From IMG/VR virus record IMGVR_UViG_3300045988_157791: DNA of 64,000 nt. One strand, written 5' to 3'. How positions within the stretch are numbered: the stretch's first letter is position 1; the number at the start of each line of letters is the position of its first letter. Positions 7,611-58,050 of the stretch are shown here, piece by piece. The notes below the pieces were generated by a model that saw only the letters and a program-made list of their open reading frames with translations, searched no databases and was not told where the DNA came from. The DNA is from a virus (lineage: Duplodnaviria > Heunggongvirae > Uroviricota > Caudoviricetes). Position numbers and translations under genes: made by a program.

Positions 7611-9644
7611 TTACTTAACCTGGTGGCCAGGTTTAGCACCAGCATCCGGGCTTAACAGGAAGATATCTTTCCCGCCGGGGCCAGCAGCCATCACCATGCC
7701 TTCAGAGATACCGAAGCGCATTTTACGTGGTGCCAGGTTAGCCACCATAATGGTGTGACGACCAATCAGTGCCTGCGGATCCGGGTAGGCAGAACGAATA
7801 CCGGAGAAGACATTGCGTTTTTCACCGCCGAGATCCAGTGTCAGGCGCAGCAGTTTGTCAGAACCTTCAACAAACTCTGCGTTTTCGATCAGCGCTACGC
7901 GCAGGTCAACTTTGGCGAAGTCGTCAAAGGTGATGGTTTCCTGAATCGGATCATCTGCCAGTGGGCCAGTAACTGGCGCGGCAGCTGCTTTCACTTCTTC
8001 TTTAGACGCTTCCACCAGTGCTTCAACCTGCTTCATATCGATGCGGTTATACAGTGCCTTGAACGGATTTACTTTATGGCCCAGCAGCGGTTGCTGGATA
8101 CCATCCCAGGTCAGTTCTGTATTCAGGAATGCTTCTGCACGTTCAGTCAGTTTCGGCAGTACCGGCTTCAGGTACGTCATCAGCACGCGGAACAGGTTAA
8201 TGCCCATAGAGCAAATCGCCTGCAGATCGGCATCGCGTCCTTCCTGCTTCGCCACCACCCACGGAGCCTGTTCATCGACATAGCGGTTAGCCAGGTCAGC
8301 CAGTGCCATGATTTCACGGATAGCTTTACCAAATTCGCGGCTTTCCCACGCTTCACCAATCACTTCAGCGGCATCAGTGAAGGTTTTGTACAACTGCGGG
8401 TCAGCCAGCTCGCTTGCCAGCACACCGTCAAAACGCTTATTGATAAAGCCAGCGTTACGGGACGCCAGGTTAACCACTTTGTTCACGATATCGGCATTCA
8501 CACGCTGAACGAAATCCTCCAGGTTGAGATCGATATCATCAATGCGCGAAGAGAGTTTCGCAGTGTAGTAGTAACGCAGGCTGTCAGCGTCAAAATGATT
8601 CAGCCAGGTGCTGGCTTTAATAAAGGTGCCGCGAGACTTGGACATCTTCGCGCCGTTCACCGTCACATAGCCATGAACAAACAGGTTGGTCGGCTTGCGG
8701 AAGTTGCTGCCTTCCAGCATGGCAGGCCAGAACAGGCTGTGGAAGTAAACGATATCTTTACCGATGAAGTGGTACAGCTCGGCGGTGGAGTCTTTCTTCC
8801 AGTATTCATCGAAGCTTACGCTGTCGCCGCGCTTGTCGCACAGATTCTTGAAAGAACCCATGTAGCCAATCGGTGCGTCCAGCCAGACGTAGAAATATTT
8901 GCCCGGCGCGTTCGGAATTTCAAAACCGAAGTAAGGGGCGTCGCGGGAGATATCCCACTGTTGCAGGCCAGATTCAAACCACTCCTGCATTTTATTTGCC
9001 ACCTGCTCCTGCAACGCACCGCTGCGGGTCCATGCCTGCAACATTTCGCTGAAAGAGGGCAGATCAAAGAAGAAGTGTTCAGAATCACGCATTACCGGCG
9101 TAGCACCAGAAACCACCGATTTCGGTTCAATCAGTTCAGTCGGGCTGTAGGTCGCGCCGCAGACTTCACAGTTATCGCCGTATTGATCTGGCGCTTTACA
9201 TTTCGGGCAGGTGCCTTTCACAAAACGGTCCGGCAGGAACATGCCTTTTTCCGGATCGTACAGCTGAGAGATGGTGCGGTTTTTAATAAAACCGTTTTCT
9301 TTCAGGCGAGAGTAGATAAGTTCTGACAACTGGCGGTTCTCTTCGCTGTGCGTCGAGTGATAGTTGTCATAGCTGATGTTAAAGCCTGCGAAATCAGTCT
9401 GATGTTCCTGACTCATTTCGCCAATCATCTGCTCCGGTGTGATACCAAGCTGCTGAGCTTTAAGCATGATCGGCGTGCCGTGGGCATCGTCGGCGCAGAT
9501 GAAGTTGACCTCGTGGCCGCGCATTCGCTGGTAACGGACCCAGACATCAGCCTGGATGTGCTCCAGCATATGGCCGAGGTGGATTGAGCCGTTAGCGTAC
9601 GGCAGCGCGCACGTCACCAGAATTTTCTTCGCGACTTGGGTCAT
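7611..9644 (-). CDS. metG: methionine--tRNA ligase (677 aa)
   Basis: Start at [26 protein letters not shown] (HIGH-type motif), KMSKS present, zinc knuckles CPKC/CEVC, C-terminal tRNA-binding domain; I recognise it as enterobacterial MetG. Confidence 0.95.
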
Positions 9645-9801
9645 AGTAGGCATTACTTCTTTGTAGTGAAAAGGGGCTTGATAGTAACAAAATGGCCTTA
9701 TGTCTGCCATGTGATAACAGCATTTCTCATAAATGATTAAATGTCGTAGCTGGAGTACACTACAAGGCGACAATTGCGCAAATTAAAATAAAGGAGACGG
9801 G
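9645..9801. promoter_or_regulatory. divergent metG / apbC promoter region
   Basis: 157-bp AT-rich interval between divergent starts. Confidence 0.5.
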
Positions 9802-10902
9802 ATGAGCGAGTCCAAATCGCCGGATGCCCTGAGAGCAATGGTAGCCGGTACGCTGGCTAATTTTCAGCACCCAACCCTGAAACACAACCTGACTACGCTT
9901 AAAGCGTTACACCATGTTGCGTTGATGGATGACACACTGCATGTCGAACTAATCATGCCTTTCGTGTGGAATAAGCCTTTTGAAGACCTGAAAGAGCAAT
10001 GTAGTGGTGATCTGCTCCGTATCACTGGCGCAAAGGCTATTGACTGGAAGCTGTCGTACAACATTGCCACGCTTAAGCGCGTCAAAAACCAACCAGGCAT
10101 TAATGGCGTTAAGAACATTATCGCCGTCAGCTCAGGCAAGGGCGGCGTAGGTAAATCCTCCACGGCGGTAAATCTGGCACTGGCGTTGGCTGCTGAAGGT
10201 GCGAAAGTTGGTATTTTGGATGCCGATATCTATGGTCCATCAATTCCAACCATGCTGGGCGCGGAAAACCAACGTCCAACCTCACCGGACGGTACTCACA
10301 TGGCACCTATCATGTCTCATGGCCTGGCAACCAACTCTATTGGTTATCTGGTCACCGACGACAATGCAATGGTGTGGCGTGGACCGATGGCCAGCAAGGC
10401 GCTGATGCAGATGTTGCAGGAAACTCTATGGCCTGATCTGGACTATCTCGTTCTCGATATGCCGCCGGGCACTGGTGATATTCAGTTGACGCTGGCGCAG
10501 AACATTCCTGTAACTGGTGCGGTTGTGGTAACTACGCCGCAAGACATCGCGCTGATCGATGCGAAGAAAGGCATTGTGATGTTCGAAAAAGTCGAAGTGC
10601 CGGTACTGGGTATCGTCGAAAACATGAGTGTGCATATTTGCAGTAACTGCGGTCATCACGAGCCAATTTTTGGCACCGGTGGCGCACAGAAACTGGCCGA
10701 GAAATACAACACGCAGTTGTTAGGCCAAATGCCACTTCATATCTCTCTTCGTGAAGATCTGGATAACGGAACACCAACCGTTATTAGTCGTCCAGATAGC
10801 GAATTTACGGCTATTTATCGTGACCTCGCAGATCGCGTTGCTGCCCAAATGTATTGGCAAGGTGAAGTAATACCTGGCGAAATCGCATTCCGCGCAGTGT
10901 GA
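9802..10902 (+). CDS. apbC: Fe-S cluster carrier ATPase Mrp/ApbC (366 aa)
   Basis: P-loop SSGKGGVGKSS and CSNCGHH motif; Mrp/NBP35 family; divergent from metG as I recall for enterobacterial chromosomes. Confidence 0.9.
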   Translation: MSESKSPDALRAMVAGTLANFQHPTLKHNLTTLKALHHVALMDDTLHVELIMPFVWNKPFEDLKEQCSGDLLRITGAKAIDWKLSYNIATLKRVKNQPGINGVKNIIAVSSGKGGVGKSSTAVNLALALAAEGAKVGILDADIYGPSIPTMLGAENQRPTSPDGTHMAPIMSHGLATNSIGYLVTDDNAMVWRGPMASKALMQMLQETLWPDLDYLVLDMPPGTGDIQLTLAQNIPVTGAVVVTTPQDIALIDAKKGIVMFEKVEVPVLGIVENMSVHICSNCGHHEPIFGTGGAQKLAEKYNTQLLGQMPLHISLREDLDNGTPTVISRPDSEFTAIYRDLADRVAAQMYWQGEVIPGEIAFRAV

Positions 10903-10905
10903 TAA

Positions 10906-10930
10906 AAAGGCGGTGCAATGCACCGCCTAA
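10906..10930. terminator. hairpin terminator after apbC
   Basis: AAAAAGGCGGTGCAatgCACCGCCtaatc. Confidence 0.6.
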
Positions 10931-10939
10931 TCAGTTCTC

Positions 10940-11329
10940 CTACATCACGGGACAATCATCAAACTCGCCACTTCTTGCGTCGTTGATAATGTGAGTGATC
11001 ACACCAAACACGGCATTGCTGCCCGTGCATCCATCGTCATCCTTTGGCAATGCTTCCTTCTTACCGGTTCTTAAATCCTCCAGATGCTGACGTGGGTACT
11101 TCCGGTATCTTTTTACGCGATATTCCCCATCCAGAGCGCATACAAGCAGAGAACCATCAACTGGGGTAAGTGAGGAATCAACCACCAGCAATGCACCCTG
11201 TAATATTCCCTCACGATGATGACTATCAGCTGCCCGCATGAAGTAGGTCGCTGAAGGATGTCTGATTAGTTGCTGATCAAGAGAAATACGGCTCTCTGCA
11301 TAATCCGCCGCAGGAGAAGGGAAGCCCAT
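10940..11329 (-). CDS. UmuD-prime-like S24 peptidase-domain protein, natively truncated (129 aa)
   Basis: Begins M-GFPSPAADY, the residues just after the UmuD Cys24-Gly25 self-cleavage site; Ser (ADSH) and Lys (RVKR) dyad positions retained; stop upstream in frame; no umuC nearby. Confidence 0.75.
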   Translation of the reverse strand: MGFPSPAADYAESRISLDQQLIRHPSATYFMRAADSHHREGILQGALLVVDSSLTPVDGSLLVCALDGEYRVKRYRKYPRQHLEDLRTGKKEALPKDDDGCTGSNAVFGVITHIINDARSGEFDDCPVM

Positions 11330-11428
11330 AGCGTTTTACCTCAATGATACTGTTTATTCATACAGTATACATTGAAAAGGCATAGTTTGTGAAAGCGGGG
11401 TTTGCAGGCGCGCCACGCTGGGGGCTAA

Positions 11429-11821
11429 TCACATTGGTGGCGTGAACTTGCCATTCATATATTGCAAAATGCTTGACTCAATTTTTTCATTAAAATCAGA
11501 ATGATGCTCCTCAAGGACAAAGCGCGCCTTATTGTTGCGCACAATAACCTCCGCCAACGGACTAACCAGAGATGTGGAGTTAGAGATTTTCTCGGCGCGC
11601 TCTACATCGCTTTTAAACGTTACGATGAAGTGCTGGTGGCCTGGTGACCGGCGACACAACATGCGTCGCACTTCCACGGTATCTTCACGGCCTTGAGTAT
11701 GTACAGGAAAGCTATCGACCACCGCTGTATTGGTGCGGATTGTCTGCATAGAACGCGTGTTGTCGTGATAGTTAAGCATGTTTAATGTCTTCCCCATCTT
11801 GCCGTTATTTTCTTGGTGCAT
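11429..11821 (-). CDS. hypothetical protein (start ambiguous)
   Basis: ORF; three candidate ATGs, the third has the best SD. Confidence 0.4.
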
Positions 11822-12056
11822 CCTCGTTCTGATACACCGGATGGCTTCCTTTTGGCAACTGGAGGCTTAACTGCCGGTAGTGCCGTAACCGTTCCATGAA
11901 ATAGGTGCGCAGGTTCTCTGGTTGCTCGCGGGCTACCTGTTCAGCTATGACAGGTATGTTCAATCGCTCTTTGTACGCCACACCGCTGGCAGCCAGATCA
12001 ACGTTAACCTTATCCCGTTCTTCCTGACTTTTAGCTGCAATATTCCAGTCGCTCAT
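11805..12056 (-). CDS. hypothetical protein (83 aa)
   Basis: ORF overlapping the downstream gene by 17 nt (possible translational coupling). Confidence 0.4.
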
Positions 12057-12058
12057 AT

Positions 12059-12331
12059 TTAAGGCTCACATTTCCAGATGGTATTCTGAACACCCGAACC
12101 GGGCGCAAGATTAGGGTTAGCGTTCGCGCTATGCTGATATACTGCTTTAGACTTCCCATATTGCTGACAGGCTTTATCTGCGGTTTTTTGCAGGCTATCC
12201 AGGCCATACCAACCATCTGACTGTATGCTTACCTTTTCACCGTCGTTGTATTGCACCATTGCACACCCAGATATAGCCAGTATCGCGCCGACAATAACGC
12301 TTTTCCATAAAACTCTATGCAACATATACAA
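12059..12331 (-). CDS. putative lipoprotein (90 aa)
   Basis: Signal peptide with lipobox LAISGC. Confidence 0.45.
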
Positions 12332-12370
12332 AAATCCCCTCTGTGAATTGAGGGGATTTTAGCATGGTGA

Positions 12371-13129
12371 TCAGATATCGGCCTTATTCGGAATTTTATC
12401 AGCCACCAGCGGCAATAAAGCCTTCGCCATTTCATGAACCAACATGGCATCAATGACGCCTAGCGTATGGACCGGCTTAATCTTTAATGCGGCCTCAAGA
12501 TAGCCTCTTTCCAGAGTGGTTTTTACGCTTTTCTTGGGCGATTGTTGGGAACTATCCGGAAAATCCGGATGGTTGCCAGCCAGTCTACGCAAAACGGCCT
12601 TAACAGCCTCAATACGGTCATCATCAACTTTTTCTACAATATTGGAATTTAAATACTTCGAAGCCTTGCTATGCCAATCGCTGGTTTTAGGGTCTTGTCC
12701 ATCCATCAAACGCCAAGCTTCAGCGATTAACTCATAGCCAGTAACAGTGGCTTCCTGCGCATCACCAATCAGTTGTGTGATCTCTCTTTCAAGCATGCTT
12801 AGAGCGTTAGGCATTGGTTTTTCTTCCGGTACTACTGGCACTGGAGGGGCGGCGTATACTTCAATTGTCCCATTATCAATAGGCCATTCTCCATCCTTGA
12901 GGTAGTCACTTGTGCCGTCAACTTGCTGTTCTGCAATGTGGAATGCACCTATTGGTTTTGCCTCAAGCGAGGCCAGTGCAATTCGTGCCAGTTTTAGATC
13001 TCGTGCAACCATCTCAATAACAACTTTGCAGTCCGCACCTTCTTTACTAACACGTCCTTTCAAGTCTTCCAGATAACTAACGCTTTCGCGTGCATGGGAG
13101 ATTAACTGTTCTTTGGTTAAGGTGGTCAT
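12371..13129 (-). CDS. hypothetical protein (252 aa)
   Basis: ORF with coding-like composition. Confidence 0.5.
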   Translation of the reverse strand: MTTLTKEQLISHARESVSYLEDLKGRVSKEGADCKVVIEMVARDLKLARIALASLEAKPIGAFHIAEQQVDGTSDYLKDGEWPIDNGTIEVYAAPPVPVVPEEKPMPNALSMLEREITQLIGDAQEATVTGYELIAEAWRLMDGQDPKTSDWHSKASKYLNSNIVEKVDDDRIEAVKAVLRRLAGNHPDFPDSSQQSPKKSVKTTLERGYLEAALKIKPVHTLGVIDAMLVHEMAKALLPLVADKIPNKADI

Positions 13130-13314
13130 TAGGCAGCTCTCTCAACAACAAGCAATTCGTCGTAGTCATAATCCGTTTCGGAACCATCCGTACCGAACAG
13201 AGTCACTTTGTCACCTTCCATCCAGAAAGATTTAACCGCACATCGTTTGCCTTTAGATGTTATGACCACATCACCTTGGGTTACATCTTCAGCGCGAACT
13301 TCTACTGTTCTCAT
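13129..13314 (-). CDS. hypothetical protein (61 aa)
   Basis: ATG with AAGAGGG SD. Confidence 0.35.
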   Translation of the reverse strand: MRTVEVRAEDVTQGDVVITSKGKRCAVKSFWMEGDKVTLFGTDGSETDYDYDELLVVERAA

Positions 13315-13855
13315 AATGCTGACCCTCTTTGGTGAAAACGCCTGATGCAATACTGTTTATGATGCTGTCAGTACAGGGAGTAGAAAGCTGGGCATCTCCA
13401 GCTATTTTCATGACTTCGACATTCGCATATCGAATACCGAGGTGTATCAGACCTGCTATACCTGACTTAAGTCGAACATTTTCCATAAACAGATCCTTTT
13501 CCCGCTGTTTAACGGTCTCCAGCTCAACACGCAGTTTCTCAAGCGTTAGGGCCATCTCTACGTTCTCCTGCTCAAGACGTCGGATGTGTTGCTGTCTTTT
13601 ATCCAGTTCGTCCAGCAGTGCAATCACATCGGGATCACTATCATCAACTACTGTTACGCGTGATTTTTCATAATGTTCATCTGCAAAAGTACGCCCTATC
13701 TTAAAATATCCGTCATCACTCTCACCGGAACAGGCATAAACAACATGTGCTCCAGATATGCGCTGTATTGACATTTCCTCGCCACAAACAGAGCATTTAG
13801 GCGCTGGTTTTGGTGAATAACGTTCACGTAACGTCAGGTAGTAAATCTCATTCAC
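13289..13855 (-). CDS. hypothetical coiled-coil protein with N-terminal CxxC (188 aa)
   Basis: Heptad-rich central region (LLDELDKRQQHIRRLEQENVEMALTLEKL). Confidence 0.45.
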   Translation of the reverse strand: MNEIYYLTLRERYSPKPAPKCSVCGEEMSIQRISGAHVVYACSGESDDGYFKIGRTFADEHYEKSRVTVVDDSDPDVIALLDELDKRQQHIRRLEQENVEMALTLEKLRVELETVKQREKDLFMENVRLKSGIAGLIHLGIRYANVEVMKIAGDAQLSTPCTDSIINSIASGVFTKEGQHYENSRSSR

Positions 13856-14307
13856 TGTTTATTTCCTGTACGAAGCTCAGCGGCAAAAGCTACTGCGTGA
13901 TCATGATGTTCAAGTGTGTATGCGCACTCAGCAAACATCTCCACGCCCTGCGCACGTACTTCAGCCAGAAAAGCATCGGTGGCTGGAGTCTCCGTTAATT
14001 CGCTAACCCAATTATCTCCGTGTTCCTCGGCACACATCGCATCGAATGCTCGCTCAGATTCTTTCAGGGCTGCATTCTCCGCCGCTAATGCGTCTCTCTG
14101 CGCCCGCAACTTCTCAATTTCAGCAGCCATGTAGTAACCAACCATAGCGAAGACGGCAAAAGAGTTGTCTGCCTCATCAGGCGACACTGAGGCCATTAGC
14201 AGGCCATCGTAAAAATCGTGACTCCCATTGGTGATCGCCACCGCATAGGAGTCGTGGTTCTCGCGCTTGTGAATGAGAACTACGGGATTTTCGATTTTGT
14301 TACTCAT
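13852..14307 (-). CDS. possible Ead/Ea22-like lambdoid early protein (151 aa)
   Basis: Coiled-coil plus C-terminal FLAEVRAQGVEMFAECAY-type segment, recalled from Ead/Ea22-like proteins; conserved GGAAAAACAC-ATG initiation context. Confidence 0.4.
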   Translation of the reverse strand: MSNKIENPVVLIHKRENHDSYAVAITNGSHDFYDGLLMASVSPDEADNSFAVFAMVGYYMAAEIEKLRAQRDALAAENAALKESERAFDAMCAEEHGDNWVSELTETPATDAFLAEVRAQGVEMFAECAYTLEHHDHAVAFAAELRTGNKQ

Positions 14308-20133: not shown

Positions 20134-20422
20134 TGGTTTCAGCCTCTTTCTTTGAAAATTTTCCATTCGAACTGTCCTTGTTGTTTTTCTCCTTCACTAA
20201 AGGCCGTGTACTTTTCGCTTCGCGTGAAGAACCAGAGGTAACAATCGCCCCCACGTTCGCAACAACTGACGCTTGCTTATCTAAACGTTCATTCAGCAAC
20301 CGAACGGCAGTCTCTAGTTCATCAAGACGTGACAGAACACGACCGCTAAATAATTCGGCCAAAATTTGACGTAGTGAACGAGGACGTTTAGTTGCAGAAG
20401 TGAAATAGGTTTGACGTGCCAT
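19928..20422 (-). CDS. hypothetical protein; C-terminal half overlaps the previous gene in another frame
   Basis: N-terminal about 90 aa looks protein-like; C-terminal Ser/Cys/His-rich part may be out-of-frame read-through. Confidence 0.3.
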   Translation of the reverse strand: MARQTYFTSATKRPRSLRQILAELFSGRVLSRLDELETAVRLLNERLDKQASVVANVGAIVTSGSSREAKSTRPLVKEKNNKDSSNGKFSKKEAETNGLRSHYSFTGDDSRSSRPEPFDAGFIHHHTSVDDNYHHSSRASCHSGWDDGGCDTSSSSSYSGSCCD

Positions 20423-20567
20423 GTGGACTCCATCCAGTGTCAGAAAGAGTTGCGGCTGGCGATTGCCAGCCGCCTTTCTCGTTCCATCCTGGAACTGTGT
20501 CTTACCGACACATTGTCATCCTGACGCCGATAAGATACATGATTTAAAATGATAGGTAAACACTTAC

Positions 20568-21161
20568 TTACTGTTTGTTGTAAACAAAACCAATATCTTT
20601 CTTGTGAGGCATATCTGCTGCGGAAAAAGCTGCGATCTTCGCGAGTCGATCACATATTTCATTTTCACGATGCCCGGCGTGACCTTTAACCCACTTCCAG
20701 CGAACATTATGTCGACTTGCAGCCTCATCCAGACGCTTCCACAGATCAACATTCTTTACCGGTTTTTTGTCAGAAGTCACCCATCCATTGCGTTTCCACC
20801 ATTTCATCCACTGTGTCATGCCGTTTTTCAGATACTGGCTATCAGAGTGCAAAATAACGTTGCATGGATATTTCAAACGCTCCAGCCCGATAAGTGCCCC
20901 CATCATCTCCATGCGGTTATTGGTGGTGCTATGAAAACCATCTGAGAACTCGCGTTCCTCACCACGATACTGGAGAACTATACCGTAACCGCCCGGGCCA
21001 CCCGGATTTTTAAGGCAAGAGCCATCACTGAAGATTTTCACGGTTTTAAGCTGGGGATTGAACTCTACGACAGGCGTTGTGGAATTGGTGCGGGGAGAAT
21101 TTTTGTTTTTGGCTTTTTTGCGAGTTTTTTCTTGCGATCGGGCTGGTGTCTTCGTCGTCAT
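20568..21161 (-). CDS. ribonuclease H (RnhA-like) with basic N-terminal extension
   Basis: Aligns with E. coli RNase HI as I recall it ([37 protein letters not shown]); ATG with AGGAG SD. Confidence 0.8.
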
Positions 21162-21164
21162 ATA

Positions 21165-21745
21165 AACTCCTGAATCAAGCGCCGCGCCGATTTTTTTCCT
21201 CGCGCGTGCGCACACGCGTGCGTGTTAATAATTATTAAAATAAACAAATTACTTCCCAGAACAGGTTTTTATAAACCTGAACTGAACGAACGAAGTGAGT
21301 GAAGTTCACCTCGAACGAAGTGAGAGGTTGTCTTTTCAGGTAATACTCTCCCAGGGAGGTGAGTATAAAAATCCCTCACCAACCTGGTCGTTTCATAACC
21401 TGAAAAGTTATGGCCTAAGTCTACTGCCAGCTTAGACTTGGGAAGTTATGGATGACAGCACCCCAGAACCGAGATCTTCCCACACTTTATGAAGGGGAGT
21501 ACTGGATTCAACCTCTCGAAACACCCCAGACTCGACAATCATAAAGTGACCCTTGTCTCCGCTCACTTTGGTTCCCCCTTCCCCGACACCTAAACGGCAC
21601 CGGTTCTACGCTGGTAGTGAGCTTTTTTAAACCTGACGCCAGTGACGCTTACCCCCACCCATCAGGTCGAGTCTCCAGTCTACGACTGGAAACTATCAGA
21701 TCTTAGCACTTACAATTCACTTTATGAATAGTTTGTACTTATCTA
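21165..21745. other. 0.58-kb ORF-free region dense in hairpins and short direct repeats (candidate structured RNA or cis-acting site)
   Basis: No ORF of 60 aa or more; palindromes CACGCGTG, CAGGTTTtataAAACCTG, GTGAAGTTCAC, CTCCCAGGGAG, GGTGAG..CTCACC, CCAGTCtacGACTGG; GAACGAAGTGAG x2. Confidence 0.4.
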
Positions 21746-32925: not shown

Positions 32926-33669
32926 TTACCATGTTCCCCATATAGGGTTTTCCAATAATCTCGCCTCCAACGAATTGGCTACTATTGCCGTTTGCAACGT
33001 TGGTTGGGGATAGTTTGCAAAGTCTGAATACTCATTTTCCTGCGTGACACGTTTATCTGCGGCATGTTTAACACCACTTGCTATGAAATGACGCATGATG
33101 CCCAATAGCCTCCGACTGTCTGCACTATCGTTTGCTAAAACATGAGGGAGCTGAAGTTCGATTTCTACCATTTCTCCATACTTACCAACAAACTGTAGTT
33201 TGTCCGCACTGTACTTTTTATCCCTCCTTTGGATAAGGAAACCAGTAAAAGCATCACCTGGCGATGCCAAACTATCCACCCGCTTATTGGCAAGTCGAAT
33301 AAGGTTCGTGAAAGCCATACAGTGATGCGCACCCATTCCCCCAAAGAACCCTTCGCTATTAATGTTAAGATCTTCAGTTTCATGGGATGCAATAAACCCA
33401 GGCCCGACGTTGGGAAGATATCCCCCCTCAACAAAAGGATTAATCAGGATCGGCGCAATACATCCAGGTGGTAGTGATTTCAAACTTTGCATCAATGGCG
33501 TCTCGGATATTAGACCAAGCAACGCGGCGAATTGTACTCCGTCAATATTGTTGCTGCCCCACAGAATACGTGGAGCCGCACCATTGGAAGTATGCCCATT
33601 GATCAGTTTTATCGACTGCATCACTGCAAATACCTGCAAAAACTGCGAGCGGCTTAATTTAAACGACAT
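32926..33669 (-). CDS. hypothetical protein (247 aa)
   Basis: ORF. Confidence 0.45.
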   Translation of the reverse strand: MSFKLSRSQFLQVFAVMQSIKLINGHTSNGAAPRILWGSNNIDGVQFAALLGLISETPLMQSLKSLPPGCIAPILINPFVEGGYLPNVGPGFIASHETEDLNINSEGFFGGMGAHHCMAFTNLIRLANKRVDSLASPGDAFTGFLIQRRDKKYSADKLQFVGKYGEMVEIELQLPHVLANDSADSRRLLGIMRHFIASGVKHAADKRVTQENEYSDFANYPQPTLQTAIVANSLEARLLENPIWGTW

Positions 33670-35575
33670 AGCTGCGCCCCTCTTTAACTTCCAGCGTAAT
33701 AGTTTCCCGGAACCATGACTTCATCTCTTTATGGGAGATAATCAGCACAGTACCTCGCTCGCGAGCTTTGGACTCCAGAATACCCATGAGGCGTTCAAGA
33801 CCGGCTGTATCGAGTGCATCGTCAATTTCGTCGCCGATAAACAAATCGATGTTTTTACTCGCCCGGTTACTAACCAGATCCTGCAATGCCAAAGAACACG
33901 CAATGCGAACCTTCCGCTTCTCACCACCAGAGAGGGTCTGGAACGACTTACTTGAACCTTTCTTCTGCACACTAATGTTGAATTTGTCGCGATACTCACC
34001 TTTTTTAGTGACATCCATCGTCGACCACTCAGCAGTAATATTCCCGTCAGACAACGTATTGAGATACTCGGCAGTGCGTGTATTCAGGAAAGGCGTAACA
34101 GACGTCAAAATATGAGAACGCACCCCGGCAGGAGAGTAGACCTGACGAGCTTTTTCCAATAGCAACGTTTGTTCCTGAATAGCCTTCAACTCATCTTTTA
34201 AGGACTTGAAGGTAGACTTACTGGATACCAGGTTATCTTCGTGTCTGGCGATAAGAGCAATAAACGGATTAATCTCTTTTGATATACGATCGACCTCAGT
34301 ACGAGCACGAGTCACAAGAGACTCAATAGCAACAACCTCCTTCTCACGATGACGCAAAGATGAGAGTTGTTTCGTAAGCTCTTCAATCCGGGCAATGATA
34401 GCCGTTACATCAGGTGTCGTTTTAACAAGGGCAGACTCAATGCTTAACGCTTTCTCAAGATTCGTTTTGTGTTTAGCCATTGCCTCTGCAAGTGTCTTCG
34501 CCTGACCAATTTCATGACGTGCTTGTTCAATGAAACTCTCCTTCACCGTTGATAGATCTTCTTCGCAGTAGGCTTTGCCACAAGTAGGGCATGGTGATCC
34601 CACTTTAGTACCAACCTCTTCTGCTTTGGTCTTAAAATTACGCGCGCGGTTCATTGCATCAGCCTGACTATTTTCTGTAGCTTTGATGCTTGCCCGAATA
34701 TCAGTTATCGCACCACGAACTTTGAGCAACTTGGCGTCATGTTCTTCTTTTGAGGCTAACTTTTTGCGCTCACTTTCGATTGCCTTCTCGGTATCACGTA
34801 TCTGTTCGGGAAGAGTGCGGATCTCAAGTTCAACTTCCGTTAACTCAACTTCGGCACTGGCCAGCCCAGCCAGGGCATCGTCATAACGTTTAGAACGCTC
34901 TTGCTCCCATGATTCAGAGGAGGCTTTCGCTGACTCAATTTCTGACTGTGTTGCCTCAATGGTCGAGATTGTCGACTCCAATTTGGTTTTAACCACATCC
35001 ATACGTGCGGCAGCTGCATTAGCTCGCTCACGAGCAATAGCGTAGGCGCGTGTCAGTCTGTCAACGCCAGCGGCTTCTTCTACGATGGTTTTGAGGTTTT
35101 TGTCGGACATTCCAGGTAAATCTGGCATAGCTTCTTGGCTCGCATAGATGGAAGCCATGAAAACCTCTTTAGATGCACCGATCAGACGCTCGACGAACTC
35201 CTGCGTCAGCGCATCTTTGCCTTTCGTCATATCGCCATCTTCACCACGAACGATAAGACGATTTTTGAACTCTTTGTGTTTACGGTGACGAATGATTGCG
35301 TATCTCTTGCCTTCATCCTCGATGGTTACTGCAACACGACAGTTCTTTTCATGGTCGGTAGACAACACATCGTCACCCTTCACACCATGAGCTGTTTCGC
35401 CATAAAGACACCACATCAGGCTATTCATTAGAGTTGACTTTCCAGAGCCATTACTTGATGCGGAACTATCATCACTATTAACACCCTGAATAAGCACTAA
35501 ACCACGCTGATCTAACTCGACCTCCGCGCTGGCGATAGCCATAAAATTCTCAACCTGGAGCTTTAAAAACTTCAT
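33659..35575 (-). CDS. SbcC/Rad50-like ATPase (gp46-like)
   Basis: N-terminal Walker A GVNSDDSSASSNGSGKST, long coiled-coil centre, C-terminal signature/Walker B (LSGGE...LFIGDE). Confidence 0.7.
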   Translation of the reverse strand: MKFLKLQVENFMAIASAEVELDQRGLVLIQGVNSDDSSASSNGSGKSTLMNSLMWCLYGETAHGVKGDDVLSTDHEKNCRVAVTIEDEGKRYAIIRHRKHKEFKNRLIVRGEDGDMTKGKDALTQEFVERLIGASKEVFMASIYASQEAMPDLPGMSDKNLKTIVEEAAGVDRLTRAYAIARERANAAAARMDVVKTKLESTISTIEATQSEIESAKASSESWEQERSKRYDDALAGLASAEVELTEVELEIRTLPEQIRDTEKAIESERKKLASKEEHDAKLLKVRGAITDIRASIKATENSQADAMNRARNFKTKAEEVGTKVGSPCPTCGKAYCEEDLSTVKESFIEQARHEIGQAKTLAEAMAKHKTNLEKALSIESALVKTTPDVTAIIARIEELTKQLSSLRHREKEVVAIESLVTRARTEVDRISKEINPFIALIARHEDNLVSSKSTFKSLKDELKAIQEQTLLLEKARQVYSPAGVRSHILTSVTPFLNTRTAEYLNTLSDGNITAEWSTMDVTKKGEYRDKFNISVQKKGSSKSFQTLSGGEKRKVRIACSLALQDLVSNRASKNIDLFIGDEIDDALDTAGLERLMGILESKARERGTVLIISHKEMKSWFRETITLEVKEGRSYVV

Positions 35576-56392: not shown

Positions 56393-56779
56393 ATGTCTGA
56401 TAACAAGATTGAATTTATAGAAAGTCGCTACGCTGCTTTTATCGCAGGGTTGATTGAATCCTCACCTATGAGCCAGGCCCAGATAGCCAAAACAATTGGG
56501 TATAAAAACGCCAACAACCTTTCTTTAATTAAAAGCGGCAAAATTCCTTTGCCTATCGATAAGGTTCGTCCGCTGGCGCTGGCACTGGGCATTGAGCCAA
56601 GTCGTCTTATGATGATGGTGCTGGAAGAACGCCAACCCGAACTCGCAGCATTTTTATACAAAGAAGGCACTGCTCCTCTTAACGAGGACGAAAAACAGGT
56701 TCTTGCTGCATATAACGAGCGATTCGGTAAAGAGAAAGGCGCATCACAAAAGGTTGTTGAGGCCATAAAGTCTCTATGA
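56393..56779 (+). CDS. XRE-family helix-turn-helix regulator
   Basis: HTH-like segment MSQAQIAKTIGYKNANNLSLIKSG. Confidence 0.55.
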   Translation: MSDNKIEFIESRYAAFIAGLIESSPMSQAQIAKTIGYKNANNLSLIKSGKIPLPIDKVRPLALALGIEPSRLMMMVLEERQPELAAFLYKEGTAPLNEDEKQVLAAYNERFGKEKGASQKVVEAIKSL

Positions 56780-57877
56780 AAAATTTACACGAATAAGCTC
56801 TGTTGATAGACGATCTCCCTTAAATTTGTGGTCAATTTCGTCTAAATCCGGTTGCTCTACGATTGATGCGATGTACGTCGAGAAACTTTCTAAGGCGTCT
56901 CGCATCTCGTCCATATAATCGTGCCGGTCGTAGACCCGATCTATCCCCTCAAGACTGTGGTTCATGATTTTACGTGATACCTCCTGGCTTATGCCTAATG
57001 CTGGGAAGTAACTACGCGCAGTACGGCGCAAATCTCGGGGTGTAAATGGCTCAAGCTCCATCAGTTCTGGTCGTTCCAGAATACGACGTAATGCCTGGGC
57101 TATTGCCACTTTAGACATAGGAAGGTCTTTCCCGATTTTTTTATTCGAAGGCACGAGCCACTGGCTGTCTTTACCATATTCGAACAACTCTTCAATACAA
57201 GTGCGCATTAATGAGCTTAAAGGCAGAGAATGCTCACGGGCAGATTTGTTCCTCTTGCCTTGATTCCAAACCCCACGCTTAAGATTGAACTCACTTTTTT
57301 TAGCCCGCAGTACTTCGTCAGGTCGTCTTGCGGATACAAGACATAGCCTGGCCGCCCATTTTGTACCAGCGCACACATTGAAGTAGTCCCATATATTCCA
57401 GAACACCCATACCTCTGCGTCGGTCAGCTTCCGCTCGCGAGGTGTGGGCTTTGCGCCACCGGCAACTTTGTTAAGTGACATATCGTTTAACGGTGACACG
57501 TCTATCATCCCCTGGAAGGCGCACCAGCTAAGGAACTGCTTCATCAGAGAGAAAACGCGGCGGCCCATAACAATTTTGCCATCCAGTATTAGTGGGTTGA
57601 CCAGTTGGTTCACCATGAACCTATTAATGTCACTTACTTTTACATCGGCAATGTGCGGCAAAACATGTATCAAAATACAATGAACAGCGATCTCTGGCCG
57701 ACGTCTGGTTATCAGCAGAGATAAGCGAGTGAATAACATGAATGCGTCCGAGAATCTCATGTCATTGCTGACCTGGGAGATCATAACGGCCTGCATTTGA
57801 GATGCTCTTTCGAGATACTCTATCGCCTCTTTTGAGGTGTTCTCCGCAGCGCGTGCTCTGTCAAAGCTATTTTTCAT
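56774..57877 (-). CDS. tyrosine recombinase / integrase
   Basis: C-terminal catalytic pattern TPRDLRRTA ... HSLEGIDRVYDRHDY (R, H-x-x-R, Y). Confidence 0.75.
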   Translation of the reverse strand: MKNSFDRARAAENTSKEAIEYLERASQMQAVMISQVSNDMRFSDAFMLFTRLSLLITRRRPEIAVHCILIHVLPHIADVKVSDINRFMVNQLVNPLILDGKIVMGRRVFSLMKQFLSWCAFQGMIDVSPLNDMSLNKVAGGAKPTPRERKLTDAEVWVFWNIWDYFNVCAGTKWAARLCLVSARRPDEVLRAKKSEFNLKRGVWNQGKRNKSAREHSLPLSSLMRTCIEELFEYGKDSQWLVPSNKKIGKDLPMSKVAIAQALRRILERPELMELEPFTPRDLRRTARSYFPALGISQEVSRKIMNHSLEGIDRVYDRHDYMDEMRDALESFSTYIASIVEQPDLDEIDHKFKGDRLSTELIRVNFS

Positions 57878-58050
57878 ATGACAATCACCGAGTTACGCCG
57901 ATGCACTGTATAAGTAAACAGTATATTAGGCATAGATTCTTATAGGATCAAGAGTAAAAGTAACTCATTTTCAGCAATGATTCCATACATAGTAGGTATG
58001 GAATCATTTAAGGGAGGAATTTAAATTCTGAGGCGTTATTAATATGATTG

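Follow-up and report, generated by a model that had tools for sequence, protein, structure and literature searches.

The best-described counterpart of the gene reported here is humD of bacteriophage P1. HumD has been known since the 1990s and a curated NCBI family model exists for it, so that one more copy carries little weight as a discovery. The P1 protein was reported to be a functional homolog of UmuD′ that facilitates SOS mutagenesis (McLenigan et al., 1999, J Bacteriol 181:7005; PMC94175), the GenBank record of P1 characterizes it as "DNA repair; functionally complements E. coli UmuD'" and places a LexA site upstream of its gene, and it has further been described as an already-activated short UmuD (PMC7092418). 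In a CRISPRi screen, P1 humD proved dispensable for lytic growth, as expected for an accessory gene. E. coli UmuD′ itself is released by cleavage of a 139-aa precursor that is encoded in an operon with umuC, whereas HumD is a direct translation product and an orphan. MucA, RumA, ImpA, and SamA belong to the same S24/UmuD superfamily and are likewise SOS-linked mutagenesis accessories on mobile elements, but according to their description they are full-length proteins that depend on cleavage and have a UmuC-type polymerase of their own encoded alongside (PMC7092418), none of which is true of the present gene.

We analyzed a 64,000-nt stretch of DNA, hereafter called the window, in which a UmuD′-like gene occupies positions 10940..11329 on the minus strand. 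This ORF comprises 129 codons and a stop, and its identification as humD drew on the ORF list, the family model NF051876, its identity to the P1 and P7 genes, and dN/dS. Its translation reads MGFPSPAADYAESRISLDQQLIRHPSATYFMRAADSHHREGILQGALLVVDSSLTPVDGSLLVCALDGEYRVKRYRKYPRQHLEDLRTGKKEALPKDDDGCTGSNAVFGVITHIINDARSGEFDDCPVM. The 5′ codons are ATG-GGC-TTC-CCT, and the N-terminus is accordingly M-G-F-P-S-P-A-A-D-Y. On the coding strand, the bases preceding the ATG (...TTGAGGTAAAACGCT) include a Shine-Dalgarno GAGG at 11339-11342 that is directly followed by an in-frame TAA at 11336-11338, as identified from the upstream sequence and its translation (...LR*NA-M). Because this stop lies two codons before the ATG, the frame is not extendable, and inspection of the in-frame translation further upstream revealed nothing resembling the N-terminal arm of UmuD. 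The sequence-only reading, which had placed the ORF correctly on the coordinates while leaving out its strand, had held that the upstream stop bars a longer N-terminus, and had named the restoration of a full UmuD N-terminus upstream as the finding that would overturn it; the TAA and the lack of any arm-like sequence upstream bear out the former and speak against the latter.

When HumD was compared by HMMER with E. coli UmuD and with the crystallized UmuD′ (1UMU), G2 onward of HumD corresponded to Gly25 onward of UmuD and to residue 1 onward of 1UMU. The stretch M-GFPSPAADY was aligned to UmuD residues 25-33, and both the arm and the Cys-Gly cleavage site were missing, so that the start of the product just after the Cys24-Gly25 site, as previously noticed from the letters, was confirmed. 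Residues 2-118 matched the solved structure 1UMU with an E-value of 3.5e-23, and HumD could also be aligned to the solved structures 1I4V and 1AY9. Based on these matches to solved UmuD′ structures, the fold of HumD is predicted to be of the UmuD′ type. An AlphaFold2 model built with a 98-sequence family alignment was of poor quality (mean pLDDT 46.3, pTM 0.36), probably because every aligned sequence was at least 67% identical to the query, and this model was set aside.

The homology of the protein goes far beyond what chance would yield. HumD attained 219.7 bits (E 8.5e-66) against the NCBIfam equivalog NF051876, "HumD family translesion DNA polymerase," for which the curated cut-off is 120 bits, with residues 1-129 matching profile positions 1-129 of the 129 in the model. 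Its match to Pfam Peptidase_S24 had an E-value of 1.3e-09. Two other assignments were tried and rejected. With the model of UmuD proper (NF007621, the autoproteolytic subunit of Pol V), the score was 87.9 bits against a cut-off of 110, and the protein lacks the N-terminal arm as its element lacks umuC. With the lexA model TIGR00498, taken for a LexA or phage CI-type S24 repressor, the score of 27.9 bits stayed below the cut-off (110.95), and the match was confined to the C-terminal domain; HumD is devoid of any N-terminal (DNA-binding) domain.

Searches by tblastn placed the protein in a graded series of relatives. It was 99.2% identical to the copy of Escherichia phage Cyrano, 92-93% identical to HumD of phages P1, P7, SJ46, and RCS47, and 62-71% identical to N15 gp26, phiKO2 gp23, and the UmuD-like genes of HK140, HK639, and BTP1. 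On the E. coli plasmid NZ_JBUZKL010000003.1, a 99.5% identical gene already bears the RefSeq name "HumD family translesion DNA polymerase." Homologous truncated genes in other phage-plasmids, a search for which had been suggested alongside the sequence-only reading, were thereby found, for example in P1-type and phiKO2-like ones. The P1 and P7 proteins share with the present one the length of 129 aa and the M-GFPSPAADY start. The genes of N15, phiKO2, HK140, HK639, and BTP1 have the same start and agree with it in length, in the LexA box, and in the C-terminal tail. Those of N15, phiKO2, and the lambdoid and P22-like phages are likewise accessory genes that stand alone, bordering the late/tail region; they differ in residing on other backbones and in having sopAB, a DinI-like gene, or a tailspike gene as neighbors. 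Compared with E. coli UmuD′, the identity was 43% over the 119 residues from Gly25 to the C-terminus, with the Ser and Lys positions present in HumD, which in turn possesses a 10-residue C-terminal extension and an altered active-site motif. The equivalog score, the Gly25-equivalent start, the absence of umuC from the element, the LexA box, and the phage or phage-plasmid carrier are all those of the HumD family. We thus consider it highly probable that the gene in the window is humD, a member of the family of pre-truncated UmuD′ analogues, borne as an accessory gene by an E. coli phage-plasmid of the SSU5/Cyrano type. As such, it is an ordinary copy of a gene that has already been characterized, named, and annotated, and the earlier proposal of a stand-alone, already-cleaved UmuD′-type product coincides with the published description of P1 HumD.

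As for the carrier, the window was 98% identical to phage Cyrano and to circular plasmids of approximately 110 kb. With Salmonella phage SSU5, 75% of a 20-kb stretch could be aligned, at 80% identity. On the closest complete plasmid (109,854 bp), genes for terminase, portal, capsid, and tail proteins occur alongside repA and parB, and there are furthermore nrdAB, a thymidylate synthase gene, dfrA51, dnaE, recA, and genes for a ligase and a DnaB-like helicase. Judged by its sequence, the host element is a phage-plasmid of the SSU5/Cyrano type and not P1 (Punavirus). The label "P1-like phage-plasmid" was rejected, since the backbone is SSU5-type and few P1 pieces are shared: a comparison of the 9-17 kb part of the window with an 8.4-kb P1 segment returned humD with its LexA-box region at 10941-11382 (86%), hot at 11802-12058 (93%), and two short pieces. 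A prophage lying beside chromosomal metG and apbC was also rejected, because the whole window matches the ~110-kb circular plasmids and phage Cyrano.

The immediate surroundings of humD both resemble and differ from those of P1. In both elements, hot lies upstream of humD and no umuC is present. The hot gene of the window, which encodes a homolog of the Pol III theta subunit, is located at 11805..12056 on the minus strand (Pfam DNA_pol3_theta, 4.5e-34; 93% nucleotide identity to P1 hot). Between hot and humD, a 130-aa ORF from the ORF list, annotated by PGAP as a hypothetical protein and matching phrog_2594 (8.1e-35), lies upstream of humD at 11429..11821 on the same minus strand, while reference P1 has a divergent lxr in this gap. 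No DNA homology to P1 lxr, whose place the ORF takes, was detected in the 130-aa ORF region. Downstream of humD, phd-doc follows in P1, whereas apbC-metG follows in the window. Many P1-like E. coli plasmids matched the whole 10950-11900 stretch at 94-95%, and hence the hot / 130-aa ORF / humD cassette occurs in both P1-type and SSU5-type phage-plasmids, the documentation of which is one point that the present analysis adds to what is known of humD.

In the reference P1, lxr encodes 190 aa (locus L001, 3254-3826) and is situated between hot and humD, divergent from the latter; in the window as well as in many P1-like E. coli plasmids, the unrelated same-strand ORF of 130 aa (phrog_2594) sits in its place. 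Meanwhile, metG (methionyl-tRNA synthetase) and apbC/mrp at 7611-10902 of the window were both full-length and arranged divergently as on the E. coli chromosome, and the identity between the phage-plasmid and the chromosomal versions was no more than about 91-92%. Plasmid-borne metG/apbC were encountered at 223 places in the complete E. coli genomes. In the recent phage-plasmid literature that we examined, there was no mention of humD, umuD, metG, or apbC.

The region upstream of humD carries the marks of SOS regulation. A strong putative LexA (SOS) box was identified at 11348..11367 (TACTGTATGAATAAACAGTA on the gene strand), with 17 of 20 positions agreeing with TACTG(TA)5CAGTA; nowhere else in the 64 kb did a site come as close as 3 mismatches to this 20-mer, and 0.00 were expected from shuffled sequences. 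A consensus scan found a sigma-70-like promoter TTCACA-18 nt-TATACT at 11364..11393 on the minus strand with 10 of 12 matches, a pattern match only, and the −10 hexamer of this promoter-like site shares 4 nt with the LexA box. The P1 box (TACTGTATAAATGAACAGTA) lies at an equal distance from the ATG, and this homologous site carries a LexA binding site annotation in the P1 record. On the 3′ side, a terminator scan revealed an intrinsic-terminator-like hairpin at 10908..10928 on the minus strand, consisting of 9 pairs, 7 of them G-C, followed by TTTTAT; it is located 12 nt past the humD stop, between humD and the convergent apbC. An Rfam scan of 9000-13500 at E ≤ 0.1 gave no match.

Each of the seven HumD family members examined has an equivalent LexA box approximately 15-45 bases before its ATG; these members are those of the window, P1, N15, Hafnia phage Pocitis76, Pantoea phage G19, a Klebsiella phiKO2-like linear phage-plasmid, and an Enterobacter P22-like prophage. 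That the module brings its own LexA box across several temperate phage types is a second point added here. Because the box overlaps the promoter-like −10, expression of humD is predicted to be SOS-controlled rather than constitutive. The sequence-only reading had called the product constitutively active; this stands insofar as the RecA-stimulated cleavage step is bypassed, but it does not hold for expression, given the overlap of the LexA box with the promoter-like site.

Elsewhere in the window, a second LexA-box-like palindrome (CACTGTATAAGTAAACAGTA) was noted at 57904-57923, which agrees with the consensus at 16 of 20 positions. The distance from this palindrome, which is on the upstream side, to the ATG of an ORF of 367 aa (56774..57877, minus strand) is 27 bases, and the annotation of the closest plasmid has a tyrosine recombinase/integrase gene of equal length roughly where this ORF sits. 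The bare CTGT-N8-ACAG core is expected approximately once per window by chance.

The element does not appear to furnish a partner polymerase for the product of humD. When E. coli UmuC was used as the tblastn query for the window and for three loci covering the whole 109,854-bp closest complete plasmid, the best E-value was 0.72, and no Y-family polymerase was found among the 128 annotated features of that plasmid. The absence of a umuC partner, as claimed from the letters of the window, accordingly extends to the whole closest plasmid, and the umuC-like gene just outside the window that had been named as a possible refutation was found there neither by tblastn nor in the annotation. Of 5426 complete E. 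coli genomes, in turn, 5423 have a chromosomal umuC, and a UmuC partner would therefore almost always be available from the host. Since the closest plasmid encodes recA and humD and no Y-family polymerase, it supplies RecA and a UmuD′ analogue but not UmuC. The same plasmid encodes dnaE (Pol III alpha), RecA, hot (theta homolog), a 3′-5′ exonuclease, a ligase, and a DnaB-like helicase, with locations at 10602-14120 and 20176-21249 of locus L005 and at 21106-21357 and 33207-33764 of locus L003.

Taken together with the work on P1, these features suggest the following course of events. In the undamaged cell, host LexA bound to the box over the −10 of humD would keep the gene off. Upon DNA damage, cleavage of LexA would derepress humD along with the host umuDC. 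HumD would then be made directly in the UmuD′ form, and the slow RecA*-stimulated self-cleavage that delays the activation of UmuD would be skipped, because the protein has neither the N-terminal arm nor the Cys-Gly site. HumD is expected to dimerize and to join the SOS-induced host UmuC in a Pol V-like translesion polymerase, loading onto UmuC sooner than host UmuD′ becomes available. As the HumD-UmuC polymerase would still require RecA*, only one of several controls on Pol V would be bypassed. Both the host and the DNA of the element itself would thereby gain in damage tolerance and mutagenesis. Dimerization, binding to UmuC and the RecA filament, and substitution for UmuD′ are here inferred from P1 HumD, on the strength of 92-93% identity, and from the literature. 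The benefit to the element is likely to be damage tolerance for the lysogen and for its own ~110-kb replicon.

HumD might instead serve mainly as a decoy or titrator, forming inactive heterodimers with uncleaved UmuD or sequestering UmuC or the RecA filament, with the net effect of damping translesion synthesis or recombination. Heterodimers of UmuD and UmuD′ form preferentially and are inactive in mutagenesis, HumD possesses the UmuD′-type dimerization core and is made without a partner polymerase, and humD adjoins a DinI-family SOS modulator in phiKO2-like elements, all of which would fit such a role. We nevertheless regard it as unlikely, as P1 HumD, which is 92-93% identical to the present protein, was reported to complement UmuD′ and to facilitate SOS mutagenesis (McLenigan et al., 1999), with which a mainly damping role conflicts.

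The conception of HumD as a preformed UmuD′ analogue that supplies host UmuC does not account for every part of the protein. Residues 112-129 of HumD end in the 10-residue extension past the C-terminus of UmuD, in which E-F-D-D-C-P-V-M is almost invariant. The codons for the tail G-E-F-D-D-C-P-V-M (aa 121-129) are located at 10943..10969 on the minus strand, as delimited from the alignments and column counts. Across 121 sequences, the counts were 118 for E122, 117 for F123, 118 for D124, 113 for D125, 109 for C126, 116 for P127, and 110 for V128. The GEFDDCPVM tail is near-invariant in the HumD clade and absent from UmuD; among distant members it is kept, at 46% identity, in Hafnia phage Pocitis76 (SEFDDNPCM) and missing in Pantoea phage G19. 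Of the features of the family, this conserved acidic tail alone finds no explanation in a simple UmuD′-mimic model, and drawing attention to it is a third point of added value.

The tail shares with the tip of E. coli SSB (MDFDDDIPF), counted from the C-terminus, [D/E] at −8, F at −7, D at −6, D at −5, and a hydrophobic last residue. In principle, the tail might imitate the acidic tip at the SSB C-terminus and so act as a docking motif, but the resemblance was noticed post hoc and we give this idea little credence. If it were true, HumD or HumD2-UmuC could bind, or compete for, the proteins that bind the SSB tip at stalled forks, and HumD would have a function beyond UmuD′ mimicry, which could coexist with its principal role as a UmuD′ analogue.

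To what extent the active site of UmuD persists in HumD was evaluated across the family. In the window copy, Ser36 and Lys73 align with Ser60 and Lys97 of UmuD, as the sequence-only reading had stated in describing the Ser/Lys dyad as retained; this proved correct for the copy at hand but not across the family, in which Ser36 is often Thr. Of 121 sequences, 79 have Ser at position 36, 40 have Thr, and 2 have Ala; N15 gp26 carries Thr there, and the protein of Hafnia phage Pocitis76 carries Tyr. Lys73 was kept in 118 of the 121 close relatives; among the distant members, it is replaced by Arg in Pocitis76 and by Ala in Pantoea phage G19. In addition, the G-D-S-M motif of UmuD is replaced by A-D-S-H with a one-residue deletion in HumD, and family-wide by A-x-[ST]-H-[FYH]-R with the same one-residue deletion. 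Since the dyad is not a feature of the family, its retention here is not evidence of protease activity.

These substitutions bear directly on the notion that HumD is an active S24 serine protease cutting UmuD, LexA, or a phage repressor in trans by means of Ser36 and Lys73. The alignment of both residues in the window copy and the high conservation of Lys73 speak for it, but the nucleophile position tolerates Thr, Ala, and even Tyr, the lysine is replaced in distant members, and the G-D-S-M motif is lost. Moreover, UmuD′ is known to need no active site for mutagenesis. We therefore judge a protease role to be very improbable. The freely varying nucleophile is consistent with a protein that no longer needs to cut itself and argues against a role as a trans-acting protease, which is a fourth point that the family-wide comparison adds.

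The family has a uniform architecture. Among the best 120 cluster representatives, 106 exhibited the M-GFPSP start and 100 had a length of 126-130 aa; longer calls look like mis-called starts, because most of them keep a Met directly before GFPSP. DNA resembling humD was detected in 713 of 5426 complete E. coli genomes (~13%), and 634 of the 747 places were on plasmids. Between humD of the window and that of P1, dN was 0.039 and dS 0.73 (dN/dS = 0.053), demonstrating strong purifying selection on a gene that is therefore not a remnant. That humD might be a functionless, decaying, 5′-truncated leftover of umuDC, as the absence of the first 24 umuD codons and of umuC could suggest, is effectively refuted by this conservation and has next to no probability, for the ATG stands exactly at the equivalent of the cleavage site, the gene has its own Shine-Dalgarno sequence, LexA box, promoter-like site, and terminator, and the architecture with its length of 126-130 aa recurs in 100 of the best 120 representatives and in several phage types.

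Some arrangements of humD-type genes in other elements were also noted. In Klebsiella phiKO2-like linear phage-plasmids (locus L010, 4682-5384, and loci L011 and L012), humD is divergent from a gene for an 80-aa DinI-family SOS modulator, and the intergenic region between the two contains a perfect LexA box, TACTGTATGTATATACAGTA. In integrated prophages of Enterobacter (L013, L014) and in Hafnia phage Pocitis76 (L008), the humD-type gene is found at the very edge of the element, after tailspike or O-antigen conversion genes and beside the integrase gene or the chromosomal flank, where accessory "moron" genes typically lie.
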